DNA of 64,000 nucleotides from Chthoniobacteraceae bacterium (GCA_947476255.1 CANJPY010000003.1:37551-101550); one strand, 5' to 3'; shown: positions 18,766 through 55,800, counted from the stretch's first letter. Notes: generated by a model not told the origin, from the sequence alone. Program-made: numbers and translations.

Positions 18766-18818
18766 GCCGGTGTCGGAGTTCACATTTTTAATCCTCTAGT
18801 CCTGAAACATTTTTCGAC

Positions 18819-23200: not shown

Positions 23201-23318
23201 TTTCCAGCAGCGGGGAGGCGAACAGAGCGCTCCATTGAATCTGGTTGAAAATCTTTCTCATACGCCGGTTTAACGGAGCCCTATTCACGCGTTTGTCTTT
23301 GGTGGTTGGTGCGTTCAT
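20295..23318 (-). CDS. PSCyt1 / DUF1549 / F5/8 type C (discoidin) / DUF1553 secreted protein
   Basis: The start is an ATG at 23318. Motifs are CYSCH...KGNLYLD, LIRRMTYDLTGLPPT and CARCHNHKFDP. A discoidin-like insert spans about 21430-21860 (YGPQYCIDGMLGEAWF...INRITF...YEIQVSMDGQSWRTV). The DUF1553 tail is ANRVWQHHFGTGIV. Confidence 0.92.
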   Translation of the reverse strand: MNAPTTKDKRVNRAPLNRRMRKIFNQIQWSALFASPLLESIVNTASKDGTCKLLASILGVLALLSASSNAADAAGMIFFEQRVRPLLVEHCYSCHSAEAKKLKGNLYLDSKAGWEKGGDSGTPAIIPGNPEESLLIRTVQHLEEDLKMPPKKPKLSDPQLADLLTWVRMGAPDPRDGAKIEAKRGDKSWWSLQPLPKTFSQDSIDGFITAKLTEKGLRLNQPSEPRSLIRRMTYDLTGLPPTAEEVETFSIAHQTNPRAAVETLVDRLLASPRYGERWGRHWLDVVRFGESNGFERNFIIDDLWPFRDYVIKSINADKPFNQFITEHLAGDVVGKDNPQIEVGSAFLVAGPYDDVGNQDIVAQKNIRAATLDDMITATSGAFLGLTINCARCHNHKFDPIPTEDYYRLRAAFEGTVHGRRIVADPMQLQAFSTTTTPLTTELKELEAQRSKLEQTIEKRAKDTFEATKFTRPKIDPNGTDESFTATEAKHLRFVIHGLTGDYQPGAKLKRGGGGKLTEFQVWSSSEPTRNVALASNGTNAEGAKSSKAEDFPDAYGPQYCIDGMLGEAWFIGTPAVLTLSFAKVETINRITFINARGDRTIEEGKVRGATPCEYEIQVSMDGQSWRTVASDEGREPWTQAHGIERFRRNSTTDEEQQKLGAFQKQIAQVQTKLNAVPALPQMWVGMHTQPKEPTFVQKGGDPMKPSEAVVPASLNVLDQVAKPYALKADADEGQRRVALAQWITSNDNPLPPRVLANRVWQHHFGTGIVDTPSDFGFLGSKPTHPELLDYLATRLLVHGWKLKPLHREILLSQTYQQSASYRDEAAKEDKSARLLWRFPPRRLSAEEIRDTMLAVAGKLQLEPMGGSGFRLYKFTQNNVSTYFPLETHGPETYRRAVYHQNARASVVDVLTDFDLPDIAFAAPKRANTTTPLQALTLLNHGFTLDMANALGSRVAKSENAVSQIFRLTFQRPPTAKEHEAATALINIHGLGAFCRAMLNTNELIYLD

Positions 23319-23333
23319 TGGAGGCGGGAGAAC

Positions 23334-24749: not shown

Positions 24750-25214
24750 TGGACAGGTTGGGCGATTAACGGTGGAGGAGATGATTTCGACGGGTAGTGT
24801 GTCGGCGACGTTCATGGGATCGCCTTTGCCTGAGGAAGTACGGTGGCCGTGGATCCTGAACAACAGCCTGATAATATTGGGTTATACCATGGATGCGCGT
24901 GACAGGTCAACGCGGGATTGTATACAATTTCGGGCTTTCCTCGAAATCGTGACCGCAGCGCCACAGCTTTGTTTCACGACGGCGCGGCGATCGACGCGCG
25001 CCCCCATCTCAGGGCGTAGGTTGGTTGAAGTTAGTGCTCAAACCAATCCCAAAAAAATGCAGCAGAGTGCTTTACCAATGGCAGCTGCACGCTGATGATG
25101 AAGTACATTTCGATTTCAAAGAAGTCGGGTGAAGGGGAGCATGGCGCCGCTTTAGGCCGCATTGATCTCGCCAGTTTTTGAAGCCCTGAACCCGGTTGCC
25201 TCGCAAATCCGATG

Positions 25215-25381: not shown

Positions 25382-26344
25382 TCAGGGCTTTTGCTGTATC
25401 CTAGGATGTTTCTCCCAAAAACGCTGGAATTGCTCCTTCGTTTTTGTAACGAGAGTCTCGTCGGGCTGGGTCCAAACAATATCGGTTTTGGGGTGATCAG
25501 ATCTGAGCTTGGCGATGTCTGCCTCACTCGCGACGACTTTCGAGAGAACGATTTTCTTCAGTGATTCCAAAGATTTCAAATGCACGAAGCCTGTGTCGTA
25601 GGTCAGCCAGGTTTCGTTGATTTCAATCTCTTCAAGAGACTTGATGCCGCCGAGGGTCACGAGACTGGCATCGGTGATGCGCGGGCTGTACTGAGGGCTT
25701 AGTTTTATGACTCGCAGCTTGGGCAAAACTCCCAGAGCAGATACACCCTCATCCGTAACGGCATAAGTATGCTGGAGATCAATGCTTTGAAGGGATTTAA
25801 TTTGGGCTAACGCCGCCGTGACGCGGTTGTCGACGCGGCATCCTCCGAGGCGTACGTGCTCGAGATTAGTGCAGGAGGCAAGGTGCGCCAGGCCAGGGCC
25901 AAGGGGCTCTTTTTGTGGGAGATGACCGGGCGCGTACCATCCCCAGTGGTCAAGGCCGAATGATTTTAGACTTTTCCATCCGGAGAATGCCTTGAAGCCC
26001 TCGTCGCTTAACTCGGCTCCGTTGGCGAAAAACTTCTCCAGTTGGTCGAGACCCCTTAATTCTCTGGCGGTGTTATCGTCAAGGCGTGCAGTTTCTGGAC
26101 TGATATCTGCGCGCTTAAGTGTATGCATGGAGCCGATCAGCGCATAGTCTTCGAGGGTAATCTGAGCCTTGGCTCCGACTGAGAGTTCGCCGACTGCGCC
26201 ATCTTTTTCGAGCTTGAACCGCACTCCCTTCGCGCTGAGCGTGTCCACTGCGGGGGGATTGGAGGCGAGCGCGAGCGAGCCTATCAATGCCGCGTGCACT
26301 GCCGCGATCGCGCTGGCCTTGGAAATTAAACGAGGTGATTTCAT
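25382..26344 (-). CDS. Secreted leucine-rich-repeat protein (RNI-like / cysteine-containing LRR type)
   Basis: The start is the ATG at 26344, which overlaps the upstream stop as ATGA (26344..26341). It has a signal peptide, MKSPRLISKASAIAAVHAALIGSLALA. Repeats of about 25 aa are present (LEHVRLGGCRVDNRVTAALAQIKSLQSIDLQHT.AVTDEGVSALGVLPKLRVIKL...). The 135-aa N-terminal extension in the track overlaps the upstream gene and is rejected. Confidence 0.85.
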   Translation of the reverse strand: MKSPRLISKASAIAAVHAALIGSLALASNPPAVDTLSAKGVRFKLEKDGAVGELSVGAKAQITLEDYALIGSMHTLKRADISPETARLDDNTARELRGLDQLEKFFANGAELSDEGFKAFSGWKSLKSFGLDHWGWYAPGHLPQKEPLGPGLAHLASCTNLEHVRLGGCRVDNRVTAALAQIKSLQSIDLQHTYAVTDEGVSALGVLPKLRVIKLSPQYSPRITDASLVTLGGIKSLEEIEINETWLTYDTGFVHLKSLESLKKIVLSKVVASEADIAKLRSDHPKTDIVWTQPDETLVTKTKEQFQRFWEKHPRIQQKP

Positions 26345-27690
26345 AACAACTCTTTCACCACACCGCTTGCCAGGCCGCCTTGGAAATCTTCGGGCAACTT
26401 CATTCCAACTCGGTCTACAACCGTTTTCCAAACGTTGGCTACAGGGACGTCCATTTGCACCAGGTGCCCCTGATGTTTGAGTCCGAGAGCGGAGCCTCCG
26501 CAAAGGAGCAGCGGTAGATGTTTTGAATCGTGGGCGTTTGGTCCGCCGTTGGTGGTGGCCCAGGCGGCCATGGTGTGGTCCAGCAGTGTGCCGCTTCCTT
26601 CCTTGACTGCTTTGAGCTTGCCGAGAAAGTAGGCCCATTCGGAGAGGTATAACGCGTCCACTTCCCTCCATTGCGCGATTTTGTCGTCCTCTTGCGCGTT
26701 GTGGGTGAGCGTGTGGAGGTCCCATTTGCTCTTGGTTTGGTATCCGTAGCACTTCGCTTCATCACCCTCGGTACGAGGAATATGACTCACTGCACGAGTG
26801 CTGTCTGTTTCAAAGGCTAGTGCAATCATGTCGAACATCATCCGGGTATATTCCGAGTAGCCGCGTCCGTCGCTGGCGATACGGTCGCGGAGGGAACCTT
26901 GGCCGAAGTCTGGACGCTGGACTCTGGGTTTCGGACGATCAATCCATTCACCCTCGACTTTGATGCGTTCTTCAAGATCGCGGATGGAAGTAAAGTATTG
27001 ATCGAGCCGCTCGCGATCCGCCGTCCCCACTTGGCGCTGGAGAGCCGCTGCTTGTTCCTTGATGGAATCGAGCAGACTCGCGCGGCGAGCCATGGCCTGT
27101 TTGGCTGCTGCAAGTGTGTTGGAATCCTCGCTTCCGAAGAGTTTCTCAAAGAGCACCTCCGGACGGTTTTCAGGAGTGATGGGCGTATGGTTCTTGCTCC
27201 AGGAGAGGGTCATGGGCGATGAGCCCCCGAAGCCTGTCTCGCGCGCGGTGCCGAGAACGAGCGAAGGAAAGCGGGTTTGGCTGCCATGGTGCAGGGCGAT
27301 TTGCTGGTCCACGGACATCAGCGTCTTCGCATTCCGCACGGTGTTGATGCCAGTGAGGAGACAGCAGCAAGACCCGTGGCCTCCGGTGAAGGAAGTGAGT
27401 TCCGTCATCACTGTCATCTCGTCTTTGAATGGAGCAAGCGACTGAAGTGTGGGCGTGAGGGTGTAATTCTTGCCGGTGTCTGGTGGCGTGAAACCCGTGA
27501 TTTCCAAGCCCAGTCCCCAATAGGTGAACATGGCGCGGCGCGGTACTTCATGGGCTGCCATGGAGCCTGCGGTTGTGATGGACTTTGCGTTTTCGCTCAT
27601 CACTTCAAGCCACGGCAAGCCCACGGCAGCGCCAAGGCCTTTGAGAAATGTTCGGCGTGCGATGCGCCACGAGTTGGTCTGGATATTCAT
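26341..27690 (-). CDS. DUF1552 protein (Tat-exported)
   Basis: The start is the ATG at 27690: MNIQTNSWRIARRTFLKGLGAAVGLPWL, a twin-arginine leader. It has an HTLTHN (HxxSHH-like) motif and the C-terminus GVVKELL, as in the paralog at 36352. It lies 16 nt downstream of the DUF1592-type gene. Confidence 0.9.
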   Translation of the reverse strand: MNIQTNSWRIARRTFLKGLGAAVGLPWLEVMSENAKSITTAGSMAAHEVPRRAMFTYWGLGLEITGFTPPDTGKNYTLTPTLQSLAPFKDEMTVMTELTSFTGGHGSCCCLLTGINTVRNAKTLMSVDQQIALHHGSQTRFPSLVLGTARETGFGGSSPMTLSWSKNHTPITPENRPEVLFEKLFGSEDSNTLAAAKQAMARRASLLDSIKEQAAALQRQVGTADRERLDQYFTSIRDLEERIKVEGEWIDRPKPRVQRPDFGQGSLRDRIASDGRGYSEYTRMMFDMIALAFETDSTRAVSHIPRTEGDEAKCYGYQTKSKWDLHTLTHNAQEDDKIAQWREVDALYLSEWAYFLGKLKAVKEGSGTLLDHTMAAWATTNGGPNAHDSKHLPLLLCGGSALGLKHQGHLVQMDVPVANVWKTVVDRVGMKLPEDFQGGLASGVVKELL

Positions 27691-27706
27691 GTGGGTGAGG
27701 GGGGGA

Positions 27707-30559
27707 TTACTTGGTTTGGAAAAACGTGGACGCCACCGTCGCGTGAATGATTTCTTGCATCCTGTAGTCGTGCGATGCGGCGTACGCAGTGATCTGCTCC
27801 ACAGTGAGATGATCTGCATAACCAATCGGGCGGCCAAGGGCGTAGCAGAGCAGTTTCTCGGTGAAGCCTTTGATGAACTTTTCTTTCTCTGCCAGCAACG
27901 CCAACTTGAACTCGGAAACGGTTGCAAATTCCCTTCCACTCGGGAGTTTGCCGCTGACATCGAGCGCGGGTGAGGCTTTGTCTCCGCGCATGCCTTCGCC
28001 ATTTTGGCGGTCGCGCCACATGCCGATTGCATCGTAGTTTTCCAAGGCCGTGCCGAAAGGATCGACGCGGGTATGGCAACTCGCGCAGTTTTCGGAAGTC
28101 CGGTGTTCTTCGAGACGCTCACGCACGCTGCGCTGTTTTTTGTCCTTGAGTGGAGGCAAGTCTCCCGCGTTCGGCGGAGGCGGGGGTACTGGCTGATTCC
28201 AAAGTGTGTCGAGCACCCAAGTGGCGCGGCGCACTGGGAGCGTGCGTGTGCCGTCGGCGAGGTAGGTGAGGATTCCTGACATTCCTAGCACGCCTCCTCG
28301 GCGGTGATCCGCAGGCGCCTGCACGCGGCGGAAGGAATCTCCTTCAACGCTTTCAACACCGTAGTGCCTCGCCATGCGTTCGTTGATGACAAGGAAATCG
28401 CTGTCGAGGAAATAGGTGATGGGAAGGTTGTTTTTCAACAGTTCGTTGAAAAATTCCAGAGGTTCGCGTTTTGAGCTGTCGCGAAGCGTGTCATCGTAGT
28501 CTCGATAAAACGCACGGTTGGGCGGGTTGCCGTTGTCGAAGTTCCGCACGCCGAGCCATTGTCCGGCGAAGTTGCGGACAAACTCCCAGGATTTCGGGTC
28601 TGCAAGCATGCGCTTGACTTGAGCGGTCAGAACCCCGGGATCACGCAGCTTGTTCTGGGAGGCGAGGTCATAGAGTTGGGCGTCCGGCGCGCTGCTCCAG
28701 AGCAGATAGGACAGACGGCTTGCGAATAACCAGTCATCAACGGGCTGCGGGTCTGGCCGGGATTTGGCAGTCACGCTTGACGGCGTCCCATCAGCGTGGG
28801 TTTCTTCGCTGCCGAGATACAGGAACGTTGGCGAGCAGAGGACGTTTTTGACTCCCGCTCGGACTGCCTCGGTAAAGGAAAGACTGGCTTCTGCTTTTGT
28901 CGCGAGCGTCCAGCGCACAATGCGATCCAATTCCTCGGGCGTTGTTTTTCTGCGGTAGGCTCGAGGCAGAAATTTCGCGAAGATCGCTCGTAGATAGGCG
29001 TCATCTTCGCGTTCTTCTCCCTCAAAAAACAAGACATGACGCCCGGTTGGAGGCCACTCGAGAAGGGGGCCTTCCCATTCCGCTGTTCCCAACCAGATTC
29101 TGGGACGGTCGGCGATGTCCCGTTTTGGATCGAAAATGTAATACGGGCCTTCGAACGTTCTGCGGTTTTCGAGCGCAGTCGCAAAAGCTTCCTCCTGTTT
29201 TTTTTGCAGGGATGCTATTTCCTCTGGTGGTTTCTTTTCGGTTTTTGCCTTGATGAGGTCGTTGGCAATCGAGTTGGGCTTGTATTGTACGTCGTGGTAG
29301 GCGGGGTTGAGCTTGGTGATGTCTTGGTCGCCGTTGTCCCAGCCGATGTTGAAGGAGCGATTCGTGCCGGGCGGGCCGGCTTGAAGATACATGACAAACT
29401 CGTACTCCTTCGGTTCCTCGAGGGGAGCGTCTACGACCACTGTTTTCATCACTTCAAAGGGACTTCCGTAGCAATATTCTGCTGTTAGGCGAACGTCTTT
29501 CTGAGCCTCCTTGCCCCGTCCAGCAAACGCGCCCGCCTTGATACGAAACCGATACCATCCGTCGCGCGTCACCCCTTTTTTTCCCCAATCCCACGCATAA
29601 AAGCCGCTTCGCAGGTTTCCCGGCTTTCGGTAGTTGTTGCCCCCTGAAAGATATTCGATGCCTCCGTTTTTGAGCGTCCACGGAAATGGACCGTGAGGCA
29701 CGTAGCGTTTTTCCTTTGAGTTTCGATCGTTGAAAGTATCGACGTAGATCGTACGCAACGGTTCTTTGAGCGTTGCCACAAATCCTGGCGTGGGATTGTC
29801 GTCCAAGATTTTGCCGGTCTCATCCTTGTAAGCAACGCCAATCCCGTGGACGTATTTTACTGCGGTTGGGTCCCACGTGAGTTTCGTCACCTCGGGTTTC
29901 TGGGCAAAGACACCTTCAGCGAGCACCATGTCCGCCACTGCAATGTAGCGATCCAACTGCCCCTCATCCATAAAGAGACTCGCCGCTCCGCGATCAAAAC
30001 CGCCGACTTTGCCGTCAGCCGGCAATTCTTTTTCAATCCGCCTCGCAAATCCTTCCTCCAATGAAAAAAGCTCCCGTACCGTATTGGAATACTCCACGCG
30101 GTTCATCCGCCGCATGGGAACCCGTCCCCCCGCACCTTGCGCTTGCTTGGTTGTTTCCTCAAGTTTCTGGGCGACCCACGAAACGACGGTAAACGCGTGG
30201 GTGGGATCTGGGCGCGTTTTTTTTGGCGGTGGCATTTCACCGGAGTTGATTTTGTCCATCACCTCTTTCCACATCCCAGCGTTGTTTCCAGAGGCAAAAT
30301 CGTCGGTCAGTAAGTCAATGCGAAAGCCCGCGCGCGCGCTGCCAGCATCGTGGCAATCCATGCAATGCGCCTCGATGAAAGACGACGTAGGTCTTGGCAA
30401 TTCCGCAGCTTGACTGTGTGGTTGGAAAGCGAGCAACCAAAGGAGGCCAAGGATCAGGCGCGAGCGCTTTGGGTGGTTGGAAGCCCGATGATGTTCAGGG
30501 CGAAGATGGAATGCAAAGATTCGGGACGCTCGGTCCTGTAGTAATTGCTTTGTCATCAT
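27707..30559 (-). CDS. DUF1587/DUF1595/DUF1592/DUF1588/DUF1585-type secreted CxxCH protein (950 aa)
   Basis: The N-terminus has CMDCHDAGSARAGFRIDL...INSGEMPP. There is a single central module (GWYRFRIKAGA ... AEWEGP). The DUF1592/1588 region has LSYLLWSSAPD, FAGQWLGVRNF and GVLGMSGILT. The C-terminus has CASCHTRVDPFGTALENYD, which is DUF1585-like. Confidence 0.92.
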   Translation of the reverse strand: MMTKQLLQDRASRIFAFHLRPEHHRASNHPKRSRLILGLLWLLAFQPHSQAAELPRPTSSFIEAHCMDCHDAGSARAGFRIDLLTDDFASGNNAGMWKEVMDKINSGEMPPPKKTRPDPTHAFTVVSWVAQKLEETTKQAQGAGGRVPMRRMNRVEYSNTVRELFSLEEGFARRIEKELPADGKVGGFDRGAASLFMDEGQLDRYIAVADMVLAEGVFAQKPEVTKLTWDPTAVKYVHGIGVAYKDETGKILDDNPTPGFVATLKEPLRTIYVDTFNDRNSKEKRYVPHGPFPWTLKNGGIEYLSGGNNYRKPGNLRSGFYAWDWGKKGVTRDGWYRFRIKAGAFAGRGKEAQKDVRLTAEYCYGSPFEVMKTVVVDAPLEEPKEYEFVMYLQAGPPGTNRSFNIGWDNGDQDITKLNPAYHDVQYKPNSIANDLIKAKTEKKPPEEIASLQKKQEEAFATALENRRTFEGPYYIFDPKRDIADRPRIWLGTAEWEGPLLEWPPTGRHVLFFEGEEREDDAYLRAIFAKFLPRAYRRKTTPEELDRIVRWTLATKAEASLSFTEAVRAGVKNVLCSPTFLYLGSEETHADGTPSSVTAKSRPDPQPVDDWLFASRLSYLLWSSAPDAQLYDLASQNKLRDPGVLTAQVKRMLADPKSWEFVRNFAGQWLGVRNFDNGNPPNRAFYRDYDDTLRDSSKREPLEFFNELLKNNLPITYFLDSDFLVINERMARHYGVESVEGDSFRRVQAPADHRRGGVLGMSGILTYLADGTRTLPVRRATWVLDTLWNQPVPPPPPNAGDLPPLKDKKQRSVRERLEEHRTSENCASCHTRVDPFGTALENYDAIGMWRDRQNGEGMRGDKASPALDVSGKLPSGREFATVSEFKLALLAEKEKFIKGFTEKLLCYALGRPIGYADHLTVEQITAYAASHDYRMQEIIHATVASTFFQTK

Positions 30560-35836: not shown

Positions 35837-36077
35837 TGAGCGGGTACGCGGCTGGATCGGGTACTTTGACTACGCGCAAAGGGATGAGGTGTTTGGGAAG
35901 ATGCAGAGGCAGGTGTGTAATCGAGTCCGGAGATGGCTGTGGAAGAAACACGCCAAGAGCCGGGCGCATTACGGGCCGCAGTATCGGAACGAACGCCGCG
36001 CGGCAATGCAAATGAAGCAAACCGGAGAACAGCCTCCGAGAGCCAGATGCGGGAAATCCGCCCGTCCGGTTCGATGA
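35832..36077 (+). mobile_element. Group II intron reverse transcriptase/maturase fragment (C-terminal maturase/X domain only)
   Basis: INERVRGWIGYFDYAQRDEVFGKMQRQVCNRVRRWLWKKH matches the RGWxxYF maturase motif. It abuts the truncated IS4 remnant at about 35835. A 12-bp hairpin follows (GGGAGATGAGGA at 36080..36091 pairing with TCCTCGTCTCCC at 36118..36129, one G-U pair). No RT fingers/palm domain is present. Confidence 0.6.
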
Positions 36078-36351
36078 GGGGGAGATGAGGACAGGGAGTG
36101 GTTGTGGCCGCAAACTATCCTCGTCTCCCTACTCTATTAGGCGGAGTGAAATTGGGGCATGCCGCTCGGAAAACGGTGTTGTCAATCTCGGGAGGTGAGG
36201 TGGAATTGCAAAGCACATCCACCTGCGCGAGAGAATTTTCGTGTGGAAAAGCGATCTCCTGGCGACTCGGTATTCGTAGTTTAACAAGGCGCAGCAGCGG
36301 AAATCGAGAACGCCATATACCTTTACTTTTTTGAGCCTAGCGGTATTGCAC

Positions 36352-37644
36352 CTATCCCGTTACCAGTTCCTTCAAAACGCCGGTACTGTCGCCATGTCTT
36401 ATGGCTGGAGCACCGACGCCTTGAAGCAATGTCAGCCAGACGTTGCAGAGCGGCGTGTCTTTGGCCACTACAAGGTGGTGGCCGAGGTTGATGTTTGCAC
36501 CGCCCCCAGTCAGAAGCATGGGGCAGTTGTCGAGGTAGTGAATCGTGCGGATGTTGCTGCCGTACGCAAGTACGCTGTTATCAAACAAACTTGTGCCATC
36601 AGTTTCCTTGGTGGCCTTCAGTTTGTCTATGAGTCCAGCCAGCAGCTCGCTCTGCGTGGCATCGCGTTTCTGCGAGGCCACCATACGGTCGCCGGGCGAG
36701 TAGTGGCTCATGTCGTGCGGCGCGACCTTGGTGCCCAGACTCTGAAGCAGCGTACCGACGGGCTGACGGTAGGTTAGGACTCGCGCTGTGTCTGTCTGCA
36801 GGGCTGCGACGATCAGGTCGTACATCACTTTGATCTCTTCTTTGCCCGCGAGTCCTTCTTTCGGCTCGGTCATTGGGGCCCTTGACTTCGGTACGCTGAG
36901 CCATTGCTCGTCCTTGCCGAGCCGTACTTCAATGTCACGAATGCTTTGAAAATACTCGTCGAGCTTCTCTGTGTCGGTTTTCGTGAGGCCACGTTGCAGA
37001 TCGCTGGCATCGCTTAGAACGGCATCGAGTATACTGCGTTTTTGCGTGAGCATCGCCTGTCGTTCGCTCAACGGAGTCGTTTCGTTTGAAAACAGCCGGT
37101 GAAACGCCTGCACGGGATTCTCCAGACCGGCCATTGGCTTGCCGCGCATGTCCCACGCGAGCGACAGACCGGGCCCATGGCCCGAATTGGCAACATCCGG
37201 AGAATTGAGCTGGATGGAGGCAAATCGCGTGTCTTTGCCCAGATGCGCCGCTGCAACCTGATCAGCGCTAATGCTGTTGTGAAAGCTCTGTCCGGGTTCG
37301 CCATACCGGTTCGCTCCTGTGAGCCAGAACGTGCTGCCCCAGTGCGCTTCATTGGCAAACTTGTTCGAGCACCCCTGCACCACGGTAATGTCCTTCTGAT
37401 GGCGCGCCAACGGCAGCAACCCATCGGGCATGTCCCACGTCGAGCCCGTTTTCGTCTTGTCAGGAAACCACGTCTCATTTGTCACCCCCCAGCCAAAGTT
37501 CAGGAACACCATGCGCTTTGGGTGAGTGGTGGGTTTTGTGTTGCCGAATACGCGAAATCCCAGAGATTCAAGCGTCGGCAAAGCGACGAGGGCGCTGGCG
37601 CTGCGCAAGAAGTGGCGGCGTGATTGCAGGGGATTCGTGTTCAT
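36352..37644 (-). CDS. DUF1552 protein (Tat-exported)
   Basis: The ATG is at 37644. The leader is MNTNPLQSRRHFLRSASALVALPTL, a twin-arginine type. It has an HDMSHY (HxxSHH) motif and the C-terminus GVLKELVTG. It lies 24 nt downstream of the 1883-aa gene. Confidence 0.92.
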   Translation of the reverse strand: MNTNPLQSRRHFLRSASALVALPTLESLGFRVFGNTKPTTHPKRMVFLNFGWGVTNETWFPDKTKTGSTWDMPDGLLPLARHQKDITVVQGCSNKFANEAHWGSTFWLTGANRYGEPGQSFHNSISADQVAAAHLGKDTRFASIQLNSPDVANSGHGPGLSLAWDMRGKPMAGLENPVQAFHRLFSNETTPLSERQAMLTQKRSILDAVLSDASDLQRGLTKTDTEKLDEYFQSIRDIEVRLGKDEQWLSVPKSRAPMTEPKEGLAGKEEIKVMYDLIVAALQTDTARVLTYRQPVGTLLQSLGTKVAPHDMSHYSPGDRMVASQKRDATQSELLAGLIDKLKATKETDGTSLFDNSVLAYGSNIRTIHYLDNCPMLLTGGGANINLGHHLVVAKDTPLCNVWLTLLQGVGAPAIRHGDSTGVLKELVTG

Positions 37645-37668: not shown

Positions 37669-40600
37669 TTATTTGGTGTGAAATTCCTTGCTGTCGACCA
37701 GCGTGTGCAAGAACTCGCGCATGGCGAAGTCATTCTTCTGCGTCCGCTGCACCATTTTCGCAGCGAGCTCTTCGTCGGTGAAGCCGAAAGGTCTGCCAAG
37801 CGCATACTGGATGAGGGCTTCCGAGAGACTAAGCGCGAATTTTTCGGGCTTTGCAGCGATCAGGTCGCGTAACTCGAAATAATTTTTGAAGGCCGGCCCT
37901 TTGTGTAAGGCGGCAGAGGGGTCGATGGTCCAGGTCTTGAGGCCGTTTTTTGCGGGTCGACCCGTGGAGTCGACGGCTTGAAAACTGTCTTCGGTACGCC
38001 ATTTGCCCACAGCGTTGAAGTTCTCCAAACCAAATCCGATCGGATCAATGGCACGGTGGCAGCTTGCGCATTGTGGCTCCTCTTGATGAGCCAGCAGGCG
38101 TTCCCGCGTGGTCAGTGGCATGCCGTTGAGCCGCGTGATTTGCGGGACATTTGGAGGCGCGGGAGGCGGCGCTTCATGCAAGAGCTTCCGCAGTACCCAC
38201 GCCCCGCGCTCGACGGGGCTTGTGCGCTCTCCGTTGCTACCCATTGCAAGCACGGCGGCCATGCCGAGCAATCCGCCGCGAGGTGACTCTTTTGGCAGTG
38301 ACACTTTCCGGAAATCATCGCCGCTTACTCCTTCAATTCCATAAAAGTTCGCGAGAAGACCGTTAACGATAACGTAGTCGCACTTAAGCAGGTCGCGCGC
38401 GCTCCCGTTTGTGCGCAACAGATGTGCGAAGGTCTCATACACTTCGCGGCGCGTGGCGGCCTTTGTGCTTTCGTCAAAATCGCGAAATTGCTTCGTGTCA
38501 AACTGGAAGAAATCCAGCCGCTCCATACCCAGCCATTGATTCACGAAGCCGCTGACAAACTCGTTCGCCTTCTCGCTGGCGATCATTCGATCCACTTCCC
38601 TTGCGAGTACCTCGTGCTTCAGCAATTCACCGCTGCGAGCGAGTACGAGCAGCGTGTTGTCAGGCGGCGCGCTCCAGAGAAAATACGAAAGGCGCGTGGC
38701 GAGTTCCGCGGCCGTGAGTAGGCGCGGCTTTTTCTCCCCGGCGGGTTCACTGAGATAAAGGAAACGCGGAGAGGCGAGCACAACGCTGAGCGGCGTCTTG
38801 AGAGCGTTCTCGAACGCATCACCGGCCTTGCGCCGTGTTTCGTAAAGCCCCATGAGCTTGCCGAGGTAGGCATCGCTCGGCGGCCTGTCACGAAACGCAA
38901 GCACGGCAAACTTCTCTATGATCGTGCGCGCGTGATCGCTCTCGCTCGCGTTCTTTGTGTTCGTGAAAACCACTGGTGCAGGCACGGACTTCGCGCCGCT
39001 CTTATTCAGGGGGCCTTCGTATTCGATCCAATCCATCCATAGCACCGGATCGCGCTGTTTGGCGTCGGCGATCTGCCGCGTGCGACCGGGTAGACTGATG
39101 CCTTCTTTTTTCAAGGGGCGCTTCTCCATCAGGATAAACTTGCGCGGACCGCCCGGAGTGATTTTGAACGGCATCTCGATGATCTCGGGTTGGTCGAGGG
39201 TCCCGGTGATTTGCTTGTTTGTGAGAAAGGTGCGGTCGTCCTTGTCGATGGGACTGGCTTCAACGAAAGTCAGGAATGCGCGCTCGGTTGGCATGTTCGG
39301 CACGCGGCCTATCTTTACGCGCATCACGTACTCGCCCATCGCGGTGTCGGAGGGCAGGTCGATGGCATACTCGGAGGTTTCCTGGACGGTGTTGTCGAGA
39401 TAGAGGCCGGTCTTTGACAGGGGCCGGTCGAGGTATTGCTGAAACCAGCGGTTGTTACTGTCCCACACCGTCTTGGCAAACTCGGCGTGGGATTTGTCGG
39501 TGAAACCAAAGTCCTTCAGTTTCGTCTCGTCACTTCCTGCATCCTTCCACTTCGCACACTGCTCATTGAGATACTTGTAACGCAAATGCCCGCGTTCCAG
39601 CTCGGCGCGGCGGGTTTCAGGCTCGATGTGCTCCGTCTTTGTGACGGGTACCTGGCTCACCAGTGGCCCTTCCCACTCCACCCAGTCGATCCACAGCGCA
39701 GACACGGCGCCAATTCCGTTCTCCTTCTTCCCTGCTTCTTGCATCTCTCCGTCCAGTTTTACATCACGTTTCTCCCGCAGAACAAAAGTACGCGGGCCGT
39801 TTGCCGTGATGTTTACGGGAGCTTCAATGATCTGCGGCGCATCGGTGGTCGCGCTGATCTGGAAGGTTTGCATCAAGGTGAAGTCCTCCGCTCCTGCCTT
39901 GCGACTCCCGAGAGCGACGAAGTGCCGTTCCCTGGGCGTGCCCTTTACTGCGCCTATCCTAAAACGCAGCACGTAGTCGCCGGGTTCCGCATTCTCTACC
40001 TCATGTTTGGTCTTCATCCAGCCTGAAGGCTGATCCGGAGGCAGCGTGATGACCTCCTCGGTGTGAACGCTTTGAATGGTGAGGTAAGCGCCTGTTTTCG
40101 TCAACGGATCGTTCAGGTAGCGTTCGAAGACCGGGGAAGCTTTTTCAAAGGCGCGCACGCGGAACTTCGCTTCTTGCTCATCGGGAATGCCCTTCTGTGG
40201 TTCGCCAGTTTCCAAAAACTTCTTCGCCGCCTCGTAACCGCCTTTGAAATATCCGTTGTACGTGCCGCCCACCATTGCATTTGCATGTAGCTCAACCTCA
40301 CGGCGTTCTTTCATGGTTTTTGCTCCCGCGAATGTCGGTGCGCTTGAGGTCACGGGGCCCGCCAATTCGATCCAATCCACCCAAACCGCTGGTTTGGGCC
40401 CGGCGCCGTGTTTTTCTTTGTAAGCACGAAACGCACTCATGCCTGCTTCACCGTTGTAGGTTGGTTGCTTTTCCCTCACTGCAAACTCCCGCAGTGAAAG
40501 TGGAGTATCGCTCATGCTGGGGGCATTCAGGGTCACCGGCACCTCGATGATCTGGGGATTGGCAATTGTTCCATGGACTTGATGGGTGCTCAAAAGTTTG

Positions 40601-43320
40601 AAATCACGAGGCAGGTCCTTGCCGGCATTGGGACCGGGGTTGCCAATCTCAATAAAGCAACGGTCCTTGGGCGCACCCTCGAGGGCGGCGACCCTCAGCC
40701 GCAGCGTGTAGTTGCCGGCTGCGGATGTCTCATCGGCTTTGATTTCGACCGTCGATGGCCCCCAGAAGGTTGTGAGGCAAACGCCCGTCTGGTGCTCCGG
40801 GATCTTCAGGTAGTCTACGGTGTACTGATAGGAATCTACGTAACGCTCGGGGTGCATGCGGAAGCGAAGCGGGTAATAGTCTGTATCGCCTTTCTGCGGG
40901 AGCCCTTTGAGCAGATCAAAATTATCTGCCCCTCTGAGTGAACGCACCAGTTCCCCCGCGCTCAAAAGTTCTCCTCCGGCGGAAAAAGCGCGCCGGTTTG
41001 CATAGGTTTTTACGCGAATATCTGCATTCTCGGGCTTCTCCAAAATCTTGAGGATGCTTGTAGCCATTCTCTCGGTGTCGGTGCGCCAATCGTCGAGATA
41101 GGCGATTCTTTTGTGGACGGCCTTGTTTGCATCGATTTCCGGCTCGATGTGGATGGTCTTCGCCAATGCCGTCCCCATCGCAGAAGTAGTCGGCGCCTTA
41201 GCCTCGGCCGGGCCTTCTAACTCTACAAAATCCACCCAGATGCACGGACGCGGCCCGGTCCCCGTTTTATCCCAGGCTTCGCGGAACATCGCATACTCGG
41301 CTCCCCGCGTGTTTGGGCGTTTGTCACGGATGGCGAAGTTGCGGTCACCGCTCGCGTTGATTTCCACAGGGATTTCCATGACCTGGGGGTTTTCGAGTGT
41401 TCCAGTGACCTGATGCGAGCTGAGCACGTTGAAATCCGCCGCGTCCGCCTTGCCCGTGCCGATTTCGATAAAACGCCGGTCCTTCGTTGATTCCTCCGAG
41501 GCCGCAATGCGCACCCGCAGCGTGTAACGCCCCGCAGGCCAGTTCACCGGCGCCGTGATTCCAGTGTAACGGCCAAGGGAGTAAAGCATCAACCAAGCGC
41601 CGGTATCACGCGCCGGCAGCTTCATGTAGTCGGCATAGTATTGATGATGGTAGTTGTACTCGCTGCGAGCAAACTGAGCATCGTCCGAATCTTTGAACCC
41701 AAACATTGTCGGGGCAGGCGCATCTGGAATCCTGGCGAAGTGATTGTAAAATAAATGAGGCGACTGCTTCACCTTAGGGTCTTCATGGAGTTGCCTTGCG
41801 ATCTCTGTGTTCCCGTCTTTTTTCGCCGCTTCATCGATCGCAGAACACCATTTCTGAAAGCGCGAATACTTTTCCTCATAACCCTCAGCATAGATGGGCA
41901 TGTATTTGTTCGCCCACTGCTCGGGGTCTTTGCGGAGCTTCTGAGACTTCGTATTGCCTGCTGTGATTGACTCTGGCTGCGTATTCACAGGCCCTTCGAC
42001 CTCAATCCAATCAATCCACAGCGCAAACTCGGGGCCGGTGCCGTTGCGCTGCTTGCCCTCGGCGAACAAGCGGTGAGATGCCTCCTCCGACTCATAAGTG
42101 CCCTTTTCCTGAAAGAAAAAACCGTGGCCTTTCGCCGGCGAAAACTTCAGTGGAATCTCCAGCACCTGTGGATTCTCGAGTGTGCCTGTGACTTGATAAC
42201 TGCTCGCTACGGCACGCACGCCGCTGTCGTGCTGCGAGCCAAACTCGACAAAGTGCCGCGTGGCTGGCGTGTTCGACGTCGCCGCGATGCGCACGCGCAC
42301 GACGTAATCGCCCGCAGGCCAGTCGCCAGGGATGCGGAAGGGCTGATACGGATTCAGAAACGCGTCCTCGATGGTGAGGAAGGTGCCCGTCTTCGTCGCC
42401 GGATGTTCAACATAGACGCGCTGATACGGCACGTAGTGCATCCAGTTCCGGCGGCCGTCTTCATCGGCATTCACCGCATCCACAAAGCCAAAGTCCTTCG
42501 GCGAAGGCGCATCCTTGATGCGCTGCCATTGCGAGTAGAGATGCGTGGCGGCGTCCTTTTGCTCCACTCGAATCTGCAAGGCGATGGCCGTATTCTCCGG
42601 CTTCAGCGCCGCCGCATCCACCGCTGCGGTCCATTTCACATAGCGCTCATGCGCGTCCGTGCGTTCGGCAAGCGACTTCACGATGCGGGCATTCCTTTCC
42701 TCCGCCTCCACATGCATTCGCCGCGGCTGCGTACCCGACGGCGAGACGAAGCGCGCGAAGTGCTCATCCAGCGCCTGCCGCCCGAGCGTTAAATATTGCT
42801 CGAACTGGTCTGAAGACATGAAAAGCGAAGAACCCACTGTATCAAACGTGCCGGAGCCACCATCCGCGGGTAGTTCGCGCACGTTGATGTCCACGCCGAG
42901 CAAATCACGGATGGTGTTTTTGTATTCGCGCCGGTTTAGCCGCCGCATGGTGATCTTGCCGCCCGAATCGCCCAGCGCGCGTCGCGCTGCCATGAGCGTG
43001 TGCGAGAGTGAATCGAGAAATTCCGTTTTCGCCATGCGTTCCGGTTGTTTCGCATCTTCAGGCGGCATCTCGCCCGAATTGAGCTGGTTGAGGATTTTCT
43101 GCCAGCGATCCGCATTCTCCACGGAGTCGAGCACGAAGGAAATGTCGTCGAGCCGCAGTTTGCCCTTTTGCTTCTCCTCGTTGTGGCACTCTACGCAGTA
43201 ATCCTTGAAAAACGCGCGGTGCTTTTGATCCAGCAGCGCGTGCGGGGCCTCGGCGGCAGGTGCTGATAGACAAGCAAAAATCGGCAGGGAAAGGATTGGA
43301 AAGAGCCAACGAGTTTGCAT
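37669..43320 (-). CDS. Giant (1883 aa) DUF1587/1595/1592/1588/1585-type secreted CxxCH protein with a 5-fold internal module expansion
   Basis: It has a signal peptide. The N-terminus is [18 protein letters not shown]...LNSGEMPP. Five modules end in [48 protein letters not shown] and [12 protein letters not shown]. The C-terminus has [32 protein letters not shown] and [18 protein letters not shown]. Confidence 0.93.
39010..42723 (-). repeat. Five tandem protein-level modules (218-285 aa each) inside the 1883-aa gene
   Basis: Approximate module boundaries in nt are 41989..42723, 41209..41988, 40354..41208, 39664..40353 and 39010..39663. Four motifs recur in each module: KTG.(Y/F/W)L; WPAG.Y.(V/L)R(V/L)RIAA (with variants); [15 protein letters not shown] (with variants); and W(I/V/M)D(W/F)(I/V)E.EGP. 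I saw no obvious nucleotide-level identity, so the duplication is old. Confidence 0.8.
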
Positions 43321-43361
43321 AGCTTAGTGACAGGTTTTTGTGAGTCCTTGGATGGGCGCCC

Positions 43362-43654
43362 TCAGCGCGGCATCTCATTGATGAGACGGTCCTCCAGATC
43401 CGAGAGAAAACTCGTGTGTCGCTGAGGGAAAGTCTGAGCCTTCATCACTTGAAACGGGGCGATGCGAAATGCCCACGCAAGGAAGTTTGTTCCGAGATGC
43501 CCCCCGGCGCCTTCGCCGAGACTACCAGAAATGTCTGCCGAAAATCATTCTCCTCCTCCGCAAAATCAGGCAACGACGCCAGAATGGCGCCTTTGATACG
43601 CGGTTGATGGCGGAAAAAAAGCTGAAGCACCTCCTGTGTTTGACTATCGCTCAT
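43362..43654 (-). pseudogene. Decayed ECF sigma-70 factor (Rhodopirellula/Verrucomicrobium-type): sigma-2 region only, frameshifted, sigma-4 missing
   Basis: Frame 1 reads MSDSQTQEVLQLFFRHQPRIKGAILASLPDFAEEENDFRQTFLVVSAKA. After a C6/G6 run (43500..43505) the homology continues in another frame: GTNFLAWAFRIAPFQVMKAQTFPQRHTSFLSDLEDRLINEMPR, then a stop at 43362. This matches the LxLF..HQ.R..G.I......A.AEDxLQET...........GTNF.AWA.RIARF.V pattern of this ECF group. There is no room for region 4 before the next gene, which starts at 43320. Confidence 0.6.
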
Positions 43655-44274
43655 TAAAGTGAATACATCTGCAGTCCGCTGAACATTAGCAAAGAAACCG
43701 GCCAAAACTTAGCCCTGAGAAATACAAATACTCTTCGAGACACTGGTCCGGCTGGGGGAATGGGAGAAAAGTGCACGCTTTCAGCGGATTTTGCCCCTGA
43801 CGTACCACGGATGTACGCCGCCGCGGAGTAATGTTTGGATGCTGAAACGCACCTTGATACAGAGGAAAATCGGCTAAAGATGACTTGAACTATGCGTGCA
43901 TTCACTGCGCATCATGACCCCTCGCTCAACATCGGCGGAGTTGGCGTAGTTTACTCAAATATCCCGTCAAGAAAGTGGATGGGCTTTTCTCTTTGAATCC
44001 ATTCATGCGAGAACTGGATTTTCGGAGAACTAGGGGCGAAGAAGGGCGAGGCATGGGGCGTCGCAAGGGGTGAGGTTCATTTTGTGTCTTAACTCTCTTT
44101 GTCCAACCCCTCCGATCAAAACCAATGCCATTTCTATTCCTGTTTTTTCGGGCTCACACTATTGCAGGCCCTAGATAGCGAATTTTGCTAAGAAATATGC
44201 TGCGGAAGGAGTTGTTCTCGGGTGGCGTACTGCCGCGTAGCCGCTGACCTATCCCCTCCACCATCCCCCAACTC

Positions 44275-45672
44275 ATGGCTGAAGCTTCTTCAACTGCTGC
44301 GAACCTGTCGGGCAATTCTTCTTCGGGATCTCTTCTTCATCTCCCCCGGCGTGGCTTTCTAAAGGCGGGCCTTCTAAACATGGCGGGTCTGACGCTGGCG
44401 GATGTCCTCCGGAGCGACGCACGTGCTGCGGCGGCCGGCAAGTCGGCGTCGAAGGAAAAATCAGTCATTATACTGTGGATGAGGGGCGGCCCAAGCCAGC
44501 ATGAAACTTGGGATCCCAAGCCTGACGCTGCCGCAGAGTATCGCGGCGCCTTTGGAGCCATGAAGACCAAAGTGCCGGGCATTCGAATTTGTGACCTCCT
44601 GCCGCATAGTGCTCGAATCATGGACAAGTGGTCCATCATACGGAGCCTCTACCACAACAATGCCGGGCATTCTGCTGGAGACCAAATCTGTTTCACCGGA
44701 TATCCCCCCGGCCAGATGGCGGATCAGAATTACTATCCGAGCTGCGGTGCGATTGTCACAAAACAGTTGCAGCAGGCAAATCCGCGCATGCCTGCGTACG
44801 TAGTCATTCCAAAGATGATGCCTGGGACAGGTGCGGCATACCTTGGGACCACTTGCAGTCCCTTTGAAACCGGAGCCGATCCTGCGAATGAAGGTCCCTT
44901 CAGTGTCCCGGATTTCACTCTGCCGGAGTGTCTCTCCCTGAACAGATTGCAAGAAAGGCATTCTCTTCTCCAGAGCTTTGACAATCTGAGGCGGGACATG
45001 GACGTCTCAGGCCAGATAGCATCTCTCGACCGGTTCCAGCAACAGGCTTGGGAAATGATTTCGGGACCGGAGGCCCGCCGTGCCTTTGATCTTGATTCCG
45101 AACCACGGTCCGTGCGGGAACGTTACGGCTTCTTCCCGAAATACGATGCGCCCACTCCTGATCGCTGTGGAGTTCCTGCGTGGAGTCAGCGTGTTTTGCT
45201 CGCTCGGCGGTTGGTCGAAGCCGGGGTACGCTTAGTCACCGTAGACCTGCGCTGGTGGGATACCCATGTGAAAGGCTACGAGACAATGAAAGACGGTTTT
45301 CTGCCTCGATGGGACCTTGCCTACAGTGCTCTCATTGAGGATCTCGAACAGCGCGGCCTGCTCTCCTCCACCCTTGTTGTGGCTTGGGGTGAATTCGGCC
45401 GCACTCCAAAGGTCAACGCAACGGGCGGGCGCGATCATTGGCCCAACGTTTTCAGCGCCGCGCTCGCAGGTGGGGGCGTCCAAGGGGGGCGAGTCGTAGG
45501 GGAATCCGACGCGCGCGGCGGCGAACCTGCAGACAATCCCAAACAGCCTCAGGACGTTCTCGCCACAATCTACAGGCATCTGGGAATCGACACCAACGCT
45601 CAATACGAAGACCGCGTTGGACGCCCCATTTCAGTGCTGCCCTTTGGTACCCCAGTCGACGAACTATTCTAG
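44275..45672 (+). CDS. DUF1501 protein (Tat-exported), with no adjacent DUF1553 partner
   Basis: The Tat leader is LPRRGFLKAGLLNMAGLTLA. Conserved blocks are MRGGPSQHETWDPKP, WGEFGRTPK and GGRDHWPN. Confidence 0.92.
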   Translation: MAEASSTAANLSGNSSSGSLLHLPRRGFLKAGLLNMAGLTLADVLRSDARAAAAGKSASKEKSVIILWMRGGPSQHETWDPKPDAAAEYRGAFGAMKTKVPGIRICDLLPHSARIMDKWSIIRSLYHNNAGHSAGDQICFTGYPPGQMADQNYYPSCGAIVTKQLQQANPRMPAYVVIPKMMPGTGAAYLGTTCSPFETGADPANEGPFSVPDFTLPECLSLNRLQERHSLLQSFDNLRRDMDVSGQIASLDRFQQQAWEMISGPEARRAFDLDSEPRSVRERYGFFPKYDAPTPDRCGVPAWSQRVLLARRLVEAGVRLVTVDLRWWDTHVKGYETMKDGFLPRWDLAYSALIEDLEQRGLLSSTLVVAWGEFGRTPKVNATGGRDHWPNVFSAALAGGGVQGGRVVGESDARGGEPADNPKQPQDVLATIYRHLGIDTNAQYEDRVGRPISVLPFGTPVDELF

Positions 45673-52879: not shown

Positions 52880-55800
52880 TTAATTTTTGCTCGTAAGAAA
52901 TTTAAGCAGCTCAAACGCCTTTTGTTCAGGCAGGCCTTCCAGAAGGCCCGGAGGCATCAGCGACTGCGGAAGCTTCTCATGTTTTGCGATATCAGACTTC
53001 GCGGTAACCACAGGCAGGCCCAGGGTGCGCAACGTCACTGCGGTTGGCGATTCCTGATCAAGAAGCCCCGACACGACCGCGCCGTCTTTTTTGGTGATCA
53101 CATGAAGTTGGAAGTTCTCGCCAACAACAGCGTTTGGATCGACGATGTTTTCCAAAAAGTAATCCAAGCCATGCCGCCAGGAACCTCCAAGATCAGGCCC
53201 CAGGTTCCCGCCCTGGCCGTTGATGGCATGGCAAACACCACAGAGCTGTTTGAAGGTTTCTGCACCGGCTTTCACGTCGTAGGCCCACAGCGGAGCCGCT
53301 GAGTAGCTTTTTTTGAGTCGTGCCATTGTCTCTTTTGAAGCCTCCGAGGAATCGTTCACTTTGCCCCAGGACTCATCGAGCAGGCGGTCGATTTCGGCGT
53401 TCTTCAAATTGCGCATCTGCCTGACTTGCAACGAAGAAACATGCTTTCGCTCGAATGCTCCCTGTTTCAGGGCTACCAGGAGCGGGGCGGCAAGTTCAGC
53501 GCGGGCGGTCAGCGTTGCGAGAGCCTTGCTTTGGTCGTTAGGGTTTAAAGACTCAAAGCGTTTGATCAAGGCCGCCGCCACAGACGGATCCTTGGCGCGG
53601 GCGAGCAGCGGGATAATGGCGCTTCTGAGAGCCTCGTTTTCGAGGAGCTTTGCAAAAAGAGGGAGGGATTCAGGATCATCCACTTTACGCAGTTGCTCAA
53701 AGGCGAATTGGCGGCGCGTATCTATTGCTTTGTCGTCCCCGAGAATGTTTCGCAGTTTAGCAACGACTTGTTTATCGCCAAACAAAGTGGAGAGGCTGTC
53801 GGCAGCATCTTCGAGCTCGCGATCTTTGGTGCTAAGAAGCCGGGTGCGTGCGGCGTCCCAACCAGCAGGCATCCGCAAAGAGGCATCGTCTTTCAGTGCG
53901 AAGGCCATGATGCGCAGAATACGAGCTGCGCTTGCATCGTCTTTCTTTGCGATAATGTTCAGCAGTTGTTCGCGTCCCTTTTCCGTGCGAGCAGCAAACC
54001 AGAGGATAGAATCGGCGAGACTCCGTTGTGGCGTGGTATTTGCAATTTCAAGGGCGCGAGGCATGTCCTCTCCTGTGATGCGACCAAGACCGCACCAAAC
54101 CATGCGAGGGAGGAAGCGGTCGTCCGCATCTTCGCCGTGGGCAGCCAACGCGGTGCCAATGTCCCACGCCAGAGGTGCAGACACCTGCGGCATCGCGGAA
54201 GCGAGAGCTAGGCGAACTGTGGGTGACGGATCGTCTTTGGCAAGGGCTACTAGAGTTGCGGCGGGCAAGGCGGGCGCATCAGAACGTTCGGTGGCCAGTT
54301 GAATTGCCCACGAGCGCAGAATATCGTCTGGAGCTTTGGCAAGTGTTTCTAGAGCGGTGCCATCGAGAGCGCCGATGACATGCAGCGTCCATACAGCGCG
54401 TAACGCCAGGCTGGTATCCGTGGAGCGAGTTTGTTCTGCAAGGATTCGCACGGCTTCGGGTTCAATGGGCTTCGCTGTTTTCCGGTATTGGAGAAGGTTA
54501 CGGGCCTGCCTGGAGTACCAGTCGTTGCGATGGGTATGAAGTTTTGCGAGTTCAATGTCCGATTTGTTCCCGAGGTCGACCTTGACGGGCTTGAAAGTCT
54601 CGGCCCACGAAACCCGGTAAACGCGGCCGTTGGTCCTGTCCCATTTTTCGTCTGCGGGCGTATGGCAGTGTTGAAGATCGCACCAGTCAATGAGATATAC
54701 CGCTCCATCGGGCCCCGTTTGGAGGTCGATGGCCATGTAACGGGGATCTGGCGCAATGAGCAGATCGTGGCCCGCGTGTACCGTTTCGTACGCGGAACCT
54801 TTCCGTTCATTCACCTGATGGTTCATTTGGTGTCCGAACAGATTGTTGGTAAAAAGGTGGTTGCGGTAGGTTTCCGGCCAGTTGTCCCCGAGGTAGATCA
54901 TGGTGCCGACATGGCTGTGACCGCCATAAATCGAGTCACTGCCGGGCTTTCCAGCGCCGCCAGCACCGCTGTCGTAGCGGGCTGCGGCCGGCAGGAAGTT
55001 CTTGAGATGAGGCGCGAACTCGGGACCCGCATTCGAAATAAAGGGAGCGTAGTTCCCGTTTGCCTGATTCCAAAAGTGGCCGTTGCGAATGATATAGGTC
55101 GTGCCACCGCCACCCCAGAAGCTGCGGCAATGGGTCATGAAGAGGTGTCCGTTGCTGTTGAAATCGATTCCCCACTGGTTGCTACCGCCGTGAGCAAACA
55201 TCTCAAATTCACGACGCACGGGATGGTAACGCCAAACACCCGAGCGAAAGTCGATGCGCTTGTCATCGGGCGTGCCGGGTTTACCAACCTGCGAACGGGT
55301 GAAGACGCCCTGATTGCCATAGAGCCATCCATCCGGGCCCCAGCTGAAGCTGTTTAAGGTTTCATGCGTGTCTTGATACCCCCATCCATCAAGCAGGACC
55401 TCAGGCTTCCCTGGTTTATCGTCGGCGCCTCGCGGAATAAAGAGCAGTTCTGGCGCGGCTCCAACCCACACCCCGCCGAACCCAACTTCAAGACCACTCA
55501 CCAAGTTGAGGCCCTCGAAAAACACCGTCCTTTTATCGAAGGAGCCATCGCCTTTGGTATCTTCAAGAATAAGAATGCGGTCTTCGTTTTTGCCATCCTT
55601 GCGCTTGTTTGGATAACTGTAGGCTTCTGCAATCCAAAGTCGGCCGCGCTCATCGATGGCGAAAGCGACGGGCTGTTTGACGTCAGGCTCCGCAGCCAGC
55701 AGTTCGGCTTGAAATCCGGGAGTCAGCATCATTGTTGCGATCACCTGCTGCCCATCGGCATTGGCGACGGCCGTGGGCTTGGCGGGATTGGCCACGAGGT

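Follow-up and report, generated by a model that had tools for sequence, protein, structure and literature searches.

What occupies the middle of a very large DUF1592-type protein of which Pfam recognises the two ends? The question is raised by a gene in a 64,000-nt stretch of DNA from a Chthoniobacteraceae bacterium (GCA_947476255.1 CANJPY010000003.1:37551-101550), hereafter the window, in whose own numbering coordinates are given. The gene encodes a protein of 1883 amino acids (aa), and the answer we reach is that an undescribed helix-plus-jelly-roll module has truly been amplified there in tandem, long ago, in a known family whose function is unknown. Proteins of the DUF1592 type were reportedly first defined in Rhodopirellula baltica, by Studholme et al. 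in 2004. The gene and the domains at its two ends are as follows.

37669..43320, minus strand: the whole gene, for a predicted exported two-haem DUF1592-type protein of 1883 aa with five tandem modules (open reading frame (ORF) listing, Pfam architecture, homologs)
43246..43320, minus strand: likely Sec signal peptide, aa 1-25 ([25 protein letters not shown]), read from the sequence
43054..43197, minus strand: PSCyt1 (planctomycete cytochrome c) domain, aa 42-89 (Pfam E 3.9e-9)
42757..42945, minus strand: PSD3 / DUF1587 domain, aa 126-188, the N-terminal flank of the array (Pfam E 2.6e-22)
38746..38931, minus strand: PSD5 / DUF1595 domain, aa 1464-1525, the C-terminal flank of the array (Pfam E 1.4e-16)
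38335..38718, minus strand: PSD4 / DUF1592 domain, aa 1535-1662 (Pfam E 1e-39)
37987..38280, minus strand: PSCyt3 / DUF1588 domain, aa 1681-1778 (Pfam E 6.3e-34)
37681..37899, minus strand: PSD2 / DUF1585 domain, aa 1808-1880 (Pfam E 1.3e-15)

The Pfam matches thus run in the order PSCyt1, PSD3, gap, PSD5, PSD4, PSCyt3, PSD2. PSCyt1 reaches 37.4 bits (cut-off 22) and PSD3 79.5 bits (cut-off 23), and PSD5, PSD4, PSCyt3 and PSD2 all exceed their gathering cut-offs as well. Two haem motifs are present: CVECH at aa 42-46, within PSCyt1, which is nearly invariant across 111 homologs, and CASCH at aa 1751-1755, within PSCyt3, of which the two cysteines and the histidine are invariant across the same homologs. 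By its domain content the protein is a member of the DUF1592-type PSCyt/PSD family, with haem binding predicted at the two CxxCH motifs, and the letters of its first 25 residues read as a likely Sec signal peptide. The 1275-aa gap between PSD3 and PSD5 (aa 189-1463) has no significant Pfam match, and a sequence search of the PDB gave no match for the protein. NCBIfam returned no match for the protein, for its DUF1552 partner or for a 950-aa paralog in the same window, both of which are introduced below.

The gap is filled by five tandem modules, whose positional types (A to D) are explained further on.

41989..42750, minus strand: module 1, aa 191-444, type A, first position (HMM boundaries, pairwise E 1e-24 to 1e-47, type clustering)
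41209..41988, minus strand: module 2, aa 445-704, type B, variable middle, the one modelled on its own (pairwise comparison, HMM, clustering, AlphaFold2, Foldseek)
40354..41208, minus strand: module 3, aa 705-989, a divergent, B-like extra module (its own cluster; best match within the protein is module 2)
39664..40353, minus strand: module 4, aa 990-1219, type C, penultimate (pairwise comparison, alignment, HMM, clustering)
39010..39663, minus strand: module 5, aa 1220-1437, type D, last (pairwise comparison, HMM, clustering)

Five such modules, with their ranges and an ordered set of motifs, had been proposed from the sequence alone, and comparison bears the proposal out. Self-BLAST of the uncut protein returned the identity match only, and so pieces were cut at the ranges given in that sequence-only reading and compared pairwise. 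In this piece-by-piece comparison the internal repeats are significant: all ten BLASTP pairs match at E 1e-16 to 1e-47, with 27-44% identity over 154-273 columns. The ranges hold as well, a five-piece hidden Markov model (HMM) placing the modules at 191-444, 445-704, 705-989, 990-1219 and 1220-1437. Every copy carries the motifs KTGxYL, GxYxxRxR, RxF, PQxxExP and WxDWxExEGP in this order, and an alignment of the five has 24 invariant columns. Linkers between modules are short (~8-15 aa). Module 3, at 285 aa, exceeds the other four in length and is closest within the protein to module 2 (43-44% identity), while module 4 combines a short helical arm with a [16 protein letters not shown] insertion.

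Could the array be a product of assembly, through repeat collapse or expansion, or the likeness of its modules a matter of chance? The sequence probably comes from a metagenome assembly, and mis-assembly at repeats is a familiar problem. Against this, the copies are only 27-44% identical in protein, and the gene has no DNA repeat of a length and similarity that could lead an assembler astray. Tandem Repeats Finder (TRF) detected no tandem repeat in the gene, and direct DNA repeats are limited to stretches of 29-70 nt at 60-83% identity, spaced 648-855 nt apart and lying over the codons of conserved motifs; the earlier statement that there is no nucleotide-level repeat was essentially right, the DNA similarity being residual only. 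The same five-module protein has moreover been recovered from independent assemblies. P0001, from another assembly, is equal in length to the window protein and differs from it by 8 substitutions and no indels, and P0002, an ortholog with 77% identity that lies on a JGI metagenome contig, retains all five modules, each 72-83% identical to its counterpart. Pairwise E-values down to 1e-47 argue against chance resemblance. We therefore give almost no credence to artefact or coincidence, and the residual DNA similarity, these two proteins and the low identity between modules of one protein together agree with the earlier suggestion of an old and maintained expansion. In all homologs examined, the highest identity between two modules of one protein is 53%, and because no pair exceeds this value every expansion seen is old.

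The five-copy form belongs to a natural series and is a modestly surprising domain expansion. The 120 closest proteins fall in length classes of ~1330, ~1600, ~1860 and ~2114 aa; 62 of them have three modules, 45 have four, 12 have five and 1 has six. Among complete genes in GTDB species genomes (78 loci, all from metagenome-assembled genomes (MAGs) or single-cell assemblies of Verrucomicrobiota and Planctomycetota, several under plainly wrong species labels), one, two, three, four and five modules occur in 2, 4, 32, 20 and 1 genes, respectively. When 1.84 billion representative proteins were searched exhaustively with a profile, only 265 matched at E<=1e-3; many of these are 850-940 aa long and hold a single copy, at residues ~190-460. 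Identical Pfam flanks enclose the modules of one-copy (863-916 aa), two-copy (1143-1178 aa) and three-copy (~1400 aa) proteins. The comparison of copy number among relatives, which the sequence-only reading had put forward as a check, thus yields a series of one to six modules between the same flanks. As far as these searches reach, the module appears to be limited to one small DUF1592 subfamily and to lie always between PSD3 and PSD5.

Two observations on the loci themselves may be recorded here. Several loci (L041 131..7808, L048 370..9966, L036 5683..13434, L012, L019 and L033) pair two subfamily members that differ in module number (3+2, 1+3 or 2+4), on the same strand and a few kb apart, with several DUF1552 genes per locus. 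Eight freshwater MAGs (L001, L011, L016, L020, L022, L032, L053 and L055) are titled 'Akkermansia muciniphila', 'Candidatus Kuenenia stuttgartiensis' or 'Klebsiella sp.', labels that look like placeholders or errors.

Are the modules of such an array interchangeable? Clustering of 429 modules resolved four positional types: A in first position, C penultimate, D last, and B in a variable middle of 0-4 copies. Modules 1, 2, 4 and 5 of the window protein are of types A, B, C and D. Its module 3 clusters only with its counterpart in P0002, to which it is 79% identical without gaps, and is specific to the lineage of the window. Window module 2 has its ortholog in third place in the five-copy proteins P0007 and P0009, and in fourth place in P0003, which has six copies. 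In four-module proteins from MAGs of Pirellulales and other Planctomycetota (L068 and L070-L077) three distant long modules, each only ~32-35% identical to any window module, are followed by a type-C module and no type D; this type-C module shares 59-65% identity with window module 4, which makes type C by far the most conserved module across both phyla. Because module positions differ among the five-copy, six-copy and Pirellulales proteins, the higher copy numbers, five copies included, were reached more than once, arising independently in several lineages. Taken together, the clustering and the identity levels indicate an array that is ancient and specialised by position.

Constraint on the modules can be gauged against that on the rest of the protein. 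Median identity to homologs is 78% for the N-terminal region, 67% for module 1, 75% for module 2, 78% for module 4, 82% for module 5 and 64% for the C-terminal Pfam region. Judged by these values, the modules seem to be constrained at least as strongly as the named Pfam domains.

The gene has a close companion, which any account of the array has to take in.

36352..37644, minus strand: partner gene, for a DUF1552 (HXXSHH) protein of 430 aa (Pfam E 8e-73)

The start of the partner lies 25 nt past the stop codon of the large gene, and its N-terminus is of the twin-arginine type (SRRHFLR). A DUF1552 gene adjoins on the same strand, on either side, in 55 of the 65 related loci that could be evaluated.

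With this pair in view, one explanation of the copy-number series is that the modules are a passive spacer or molecular ruler: free of ligand, they would set the distance between the N-terminal haem and the C-terminal haem with its DUF1552 partner, copy number tuning the length, for example to span a wide PVC-type periplasm. The discrete series of 1-6 copies, which grows by ~250-270 aa per step between identical flanks, is what a ruler would give, and short linkers, the independent origin of higher copy numbers and the presence in some genomes of side-by-side paralogs of unequal length are all in keeping with it. Spacers, however, are normally fast-evolving and interchangeable, whereas here each position is a distinct orthologous type, and the conservation of modules 4 and 5 (78-82%) is above that of the C-terminal Pfam domains (64%). 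The modules are also devoid of haem motifs, so that a long rod would put the two haems beyond electron-transfer range, and an AlphaFold2 (AF2) model of aa 990-1883 shows no confident rigid packing between modules (predicted TM-score (pTM) 0.34). We regard a ruler, including one that spans a wide periplasm, as unlikely.

The window contains a second DUF1592-type gene, in which the sequence-only reading had seen a single copy of the module.

27707..30559, minus strand: 950-aa DUF1592-type paralog of a different subfamily, with one middle region (Pfam, flank identity, hhalign)
26341..28122, minus strand: DUF1552 partner of the paralog (Pfam)

The paralog has the same six Pfam domains, and its flanks are 31-34% identical to those of the 1883-aa protein. 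BLAST and a five-sequence profile recover no more of its middle than the final W..EWEGP strand. Deep profiles compared with hhalign (429 modules against 121 members of the paralog family) give 84% probability and E 8e-6 over 112 core columns, in an alignment that pairs the motifs as had been done by eye, and the reversed control was empty; the module HMM reached only E 0.02-0.08 on the paralog family. The earlier claim is therefore right in that one remotely homologous middle region is present, but the paralog comes from another DUF1592 subfamily, and is best described as a remote homolog and not as the single-copy form of the same protein. True one- and two-copy members of the large gene's own subfamily exist in other genomes. 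As to gene boundaries, the start of the paralog is uncertain, its database version (P0121) having 884 aa against the 950 aa of the ORF. Its DUF1552 ORF overlaps the 3' end of the paralog by ~415 nt; the DUF1552 domain begins at residue 196 of that ORF, and the real start is probably just after 27707.

What kind of domain is the module? AF2, fed an alignment of 29 diverse modules, modelled module 2 at a predicted local distance difference test score (pLDDT) of 93.4 and a pTM of 0.84. The model starts with a short N-terminal strand bearing the conserved H-x-E-P-E, continues with a helical arm (residues ~23-121) and ends in a beta-sandwich (residues ~131-259) in which one helix precedes the final W-x-D-W-x-E-x-E-G-P strand. 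Modules 4 and 5 were modelled with the same order of elements and shorter arms; across modules the helical arm measures ~60-100 aa and the jelly-roll beta-sandwich ~130 aa. In Foldseek searches of the PDB the sandwich of module 2 matched the ligand-binding domains of EphA2 and EphA7 (E 1e-4), the carbohydrate-binding modules (CBMs) CBM6 (1uxz, E 6e-4, TM 0.46) and CBM35 (2w1w, TM 0.48) and, further, CBM29, the TNF-like N-terminal domain of the lectin BC2L-C and the MAM domain of meprin. The two-module model, of aa 990-1883, matched tandem CBM22 (4xup, E 6e-5), tandem CBM32, the CBM-like accessory domains of GH101, reelin repeats and neuropilin b1b2; for this model Foldseek returned tandem jelly-roll proteins only, with nothing for the helical C-terminal region. 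On these models the likeness of the lectin-like sandwich to CBM6/35/22, to Eph ligand-binding domains and to MAM is one of fold, not of family membership.

A weak Pfam AA9 match of module 5 (E 2e-4 when the whole protein is searched, 0.011 with the module by itself), together with AA9 among the precomputed domains of several homologs, raises the question of whether the modules might themselves be catalytic, for example copper oxidases like the AA9 lytic polysaccharide monooxygenases (LPMOs), fed by the haems. There is a precedent for such feeding: electron transfer from cytochrome to LPMO is known for Cellvibrio japonicus Cbp2D, the cytochrome domain of which has been studied as the donor (PMC8981238). 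The AA9 match, however, covers ~55 residues in the region of the G-x-Y-x-x-R strand and scores 16-22 bits against a Pfam cut-off of 27.8. An LPMO builds its histidine brace on the histidine at its mature N-terminus, and a module inside a longer chain cannot supply one; histidine is also absent from the 21 module positions that are conserved universally, and no AA9 or AA10 structure is among the 50 Foldseek matches listed. More generally, the helix-plus-sandwich module has no haem motif and no catalytic signature. A catalytic role is very improbable, and in its LPMO-like form already looks refuted by the letters of the protein themselves. Family assignments to AA9 and to GEVED were both rejected, as sub-threshold partial matches to the G-x-Y-x-x-R strand.

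The reading we prefer, and hold with middling confidence, is that the modules are an array of specialised, non-interchangeable, non-catalytic binding units on a periplasmic redox protein, possibly linked to glycans. A binding role is proposed because the fold is of a ligand-binding type, haem and catalytic motifs are absent from the modules, and their conservation exceeds that of the C-terminal Pfam domains; the fold and the pattern of conservation favour specific binding over a passive ruler. In such a scheme the modules would give the cytochrome/DUF1552 redox pair several distinct places in the periplasm at which a polymeric substrate, or partner proteins, could dock. A glycan would be the most likely substrate, to judge from the gene neighbourhood, and added B-type modules would increase both reach and number of sites.

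It is important to note what weighs against this. Binding of a glycan or partner by any member of the family is predicted only. The Foldseek likeness is generic (target-normalised TM 0.35-0.48, 4-18% identity), Pfam CBM and lectin models match no module even at E<=1, and the helical arm is without a structural match. Universally conserved aromatics sit in strands and look like core residues, not like an exposed sugar platform; a search for type-specific conserved surface positions gave only 5 columns, too few to be informative. The arrangement of the modules is not readable from the model of aa 990-1883, given its low pTM. Finally, He et al. predicted PSCyt proteins to be periplasmic or cytoplasmic, not extracellular (PMC5615132), and any glycan ligand would therefore have to be an imported oligomer.

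A related possibility is that the sandwiches bind proteins and serve as a scaffold, the ligands being the DUF1552 partner, periplasmic enzymes or further copies of the protein itself, so that a multi-enzyme or oligomeric complex is assembled. The top Foldseek matches are indeed protein-binding jelly rolls (EphA2/A7 ligand-binding, meprin MAM and the TNF-like BC2L-C N-terminal domain), high position-specific conservation would suit fixed protein interfaces, and the DUF1552 gene is strictly co-located. Yet there is one DUF1552 gene per multi-module gene whatever the copy number, and CBM folds score about equal to the protein-binding ones. Genomic context aside, a scaffold fits about as well as glycan binding; with that context included we consider it unlikely.

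We also entertain, as quite an unlikely case, a semi-rigid, position-coded stalk in which the number of modules is a selected 'dial', raised independently in several lineages of Verrucomicrobiota and Planctomycetota. If this were true, the stalk would either set the distance from the N-terminal haem to the C-terminal haem and DUF1552 or display an ordered series of different ligand sites, and would be a periplasmic device for measuring or processively handling long polymers, of a kind undescribed for redox proteins.

The gene neighbourhood from which a glycan is suggested is rich in genes of carbohydrate-active type: SASA esterases, DUF4838, GH2_N, pectate-lyase-like, 3-keto-disaccharide hydrolase and AXE1. 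The window also has two pairs of a PSCyt1-PSCyt2-PSD1 (DUF1549/DUF1553) gene with a DUF1501 gene, at 15532..20231 (plus strand) and 20295..24863 (minus strand); in one of these PSCyt2/PSD1 proteins the middle sandwich is Laminin_G_3 and in the other F5/8 type C. DUF1552 and DUF1501 share no similarity by BLAST, and a PDB sequence search gave no match for DUF1552 or for a DUF1501 protein. Two large DUF7133 proteins, at 2407..5019 and 52880..57193 (both minus strand), one combining HEAT repeats with cytochrome c and the other HEAT repeats with 3-keto-disaccharide hydrolase, add to the redox-plus-carbohydrate theme of the window.

Several features around the large gene are of separate interest. 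Between its start and a divergent DUF1501 gene (44275..45672, plus strand) lies a 954-nt gap with short ORFs only (43321..44274), and no PSCyt2/PSD1 gene stands next to that DUF1501 gene, whereas the window's other two DUF1501 genes each have one. At 36038..36137 (plus strand), between a DUF4126 gene and the DUF1552 gene, Rfam RF00029 (group II intron domain V/VI) matches at 45.7 bits against a gathering score of 40 (local E 3.9e-7). No plus-strand ORF of reverse-transcriptase size is found upstream of it, and the match may therefore represent an ORF-less or degenerate intron or a fragment of one.

In Planctomycetota and Verrucomicrobiota, few families of wholly unknown function are as abundant as the PSCyt/PSD proteins; the survey concerned, of freshwater Verrucomicrobia, noted that they often carry CBMs and proposed that they take part in carbohydrate metabolism (PMC5615132). 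A study of a lignocellulose-degrading community features a Cellvibrio 'DUF1592 domain-containing protein' that bears a CBM2 (PMC6004670), and our literature search found no functional study of DUF1592 or DUF1552. The chemistry of the DUF1592 family is not revealed by an analysis of the modules. What the analysis does provide is an undescribed module of ~250 aa, of a ligand-binding type of fold, that now fills the unannotated middle of one DUF1592 subfamily, and whose copy number was raised repeatedly and then, by the levels of identity, held under strong purifying selection. The four module types and the natural variants of one to six copies offer handles for experiment.

Among known systems, the PSCyt2-PSD1 and DUF1501 pairs of the same window offer a parallel in layout: an N-terminal planctomycete cytochrome c, a middle beta-sandwich, a C-terminal PSD region and an adjoining exported partner. 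They differ in being built from unrelated domain families, with a single sandwich and with DUF1501 as the partner.

Tandem CBMs of glycoside hydrolases (CBM22-1/CBM22-2 of Xyn10C, 4xup; CBM6, 1uxz; CBM35, 2w1w; CBM32 of ZmpB, 7jnd) share with the modules the jelly-roll beta-sandwich and the arrangement as non-catalytic accessories, in tandem on short linkers, on an exported protein of a polysaccharide-degrading organism. Unlike them, the modules of the window belong to no CBM sequence family, their sandwich carries a 60-100-aa helical arm after its first strand, their binding is predicted only, and their carrier is a haem protein and not a hydrolase.

Closer in composition is Cbp2D of Cellvibrio japonicus, in which CBM2, a YceI-like X158, FN3, DUF1587 and the c-type cytochrome domains X183/X132 are combined (PMC8981238). 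Like the window protein it is an exported multi-domain c-type cytochrome with DUF1587/PSD3 and a non-catalytic binding module, and electron delivery during polysaccharide breakdown has been proposed for Cbp2D itself; its overall architecture is different, with one classical CBM2 and no repeated helix-plus-sandwich module, and the window genes scanned with Pfam include no LPMO gene.

The nearest counterparts are the single-module DUF1592-type proteins. These have one module of ~250-300 aa, against five in 1275 aa here, and Pfam has no model of the module. In those of the same subfamily that one module is recognisable in the slot between PSD3 and PSD5, and the six Pfam domains in the same order, both CxxCH motifs, the export signal and the adjoining DUF1552 are shared with the five-module protein of the window.

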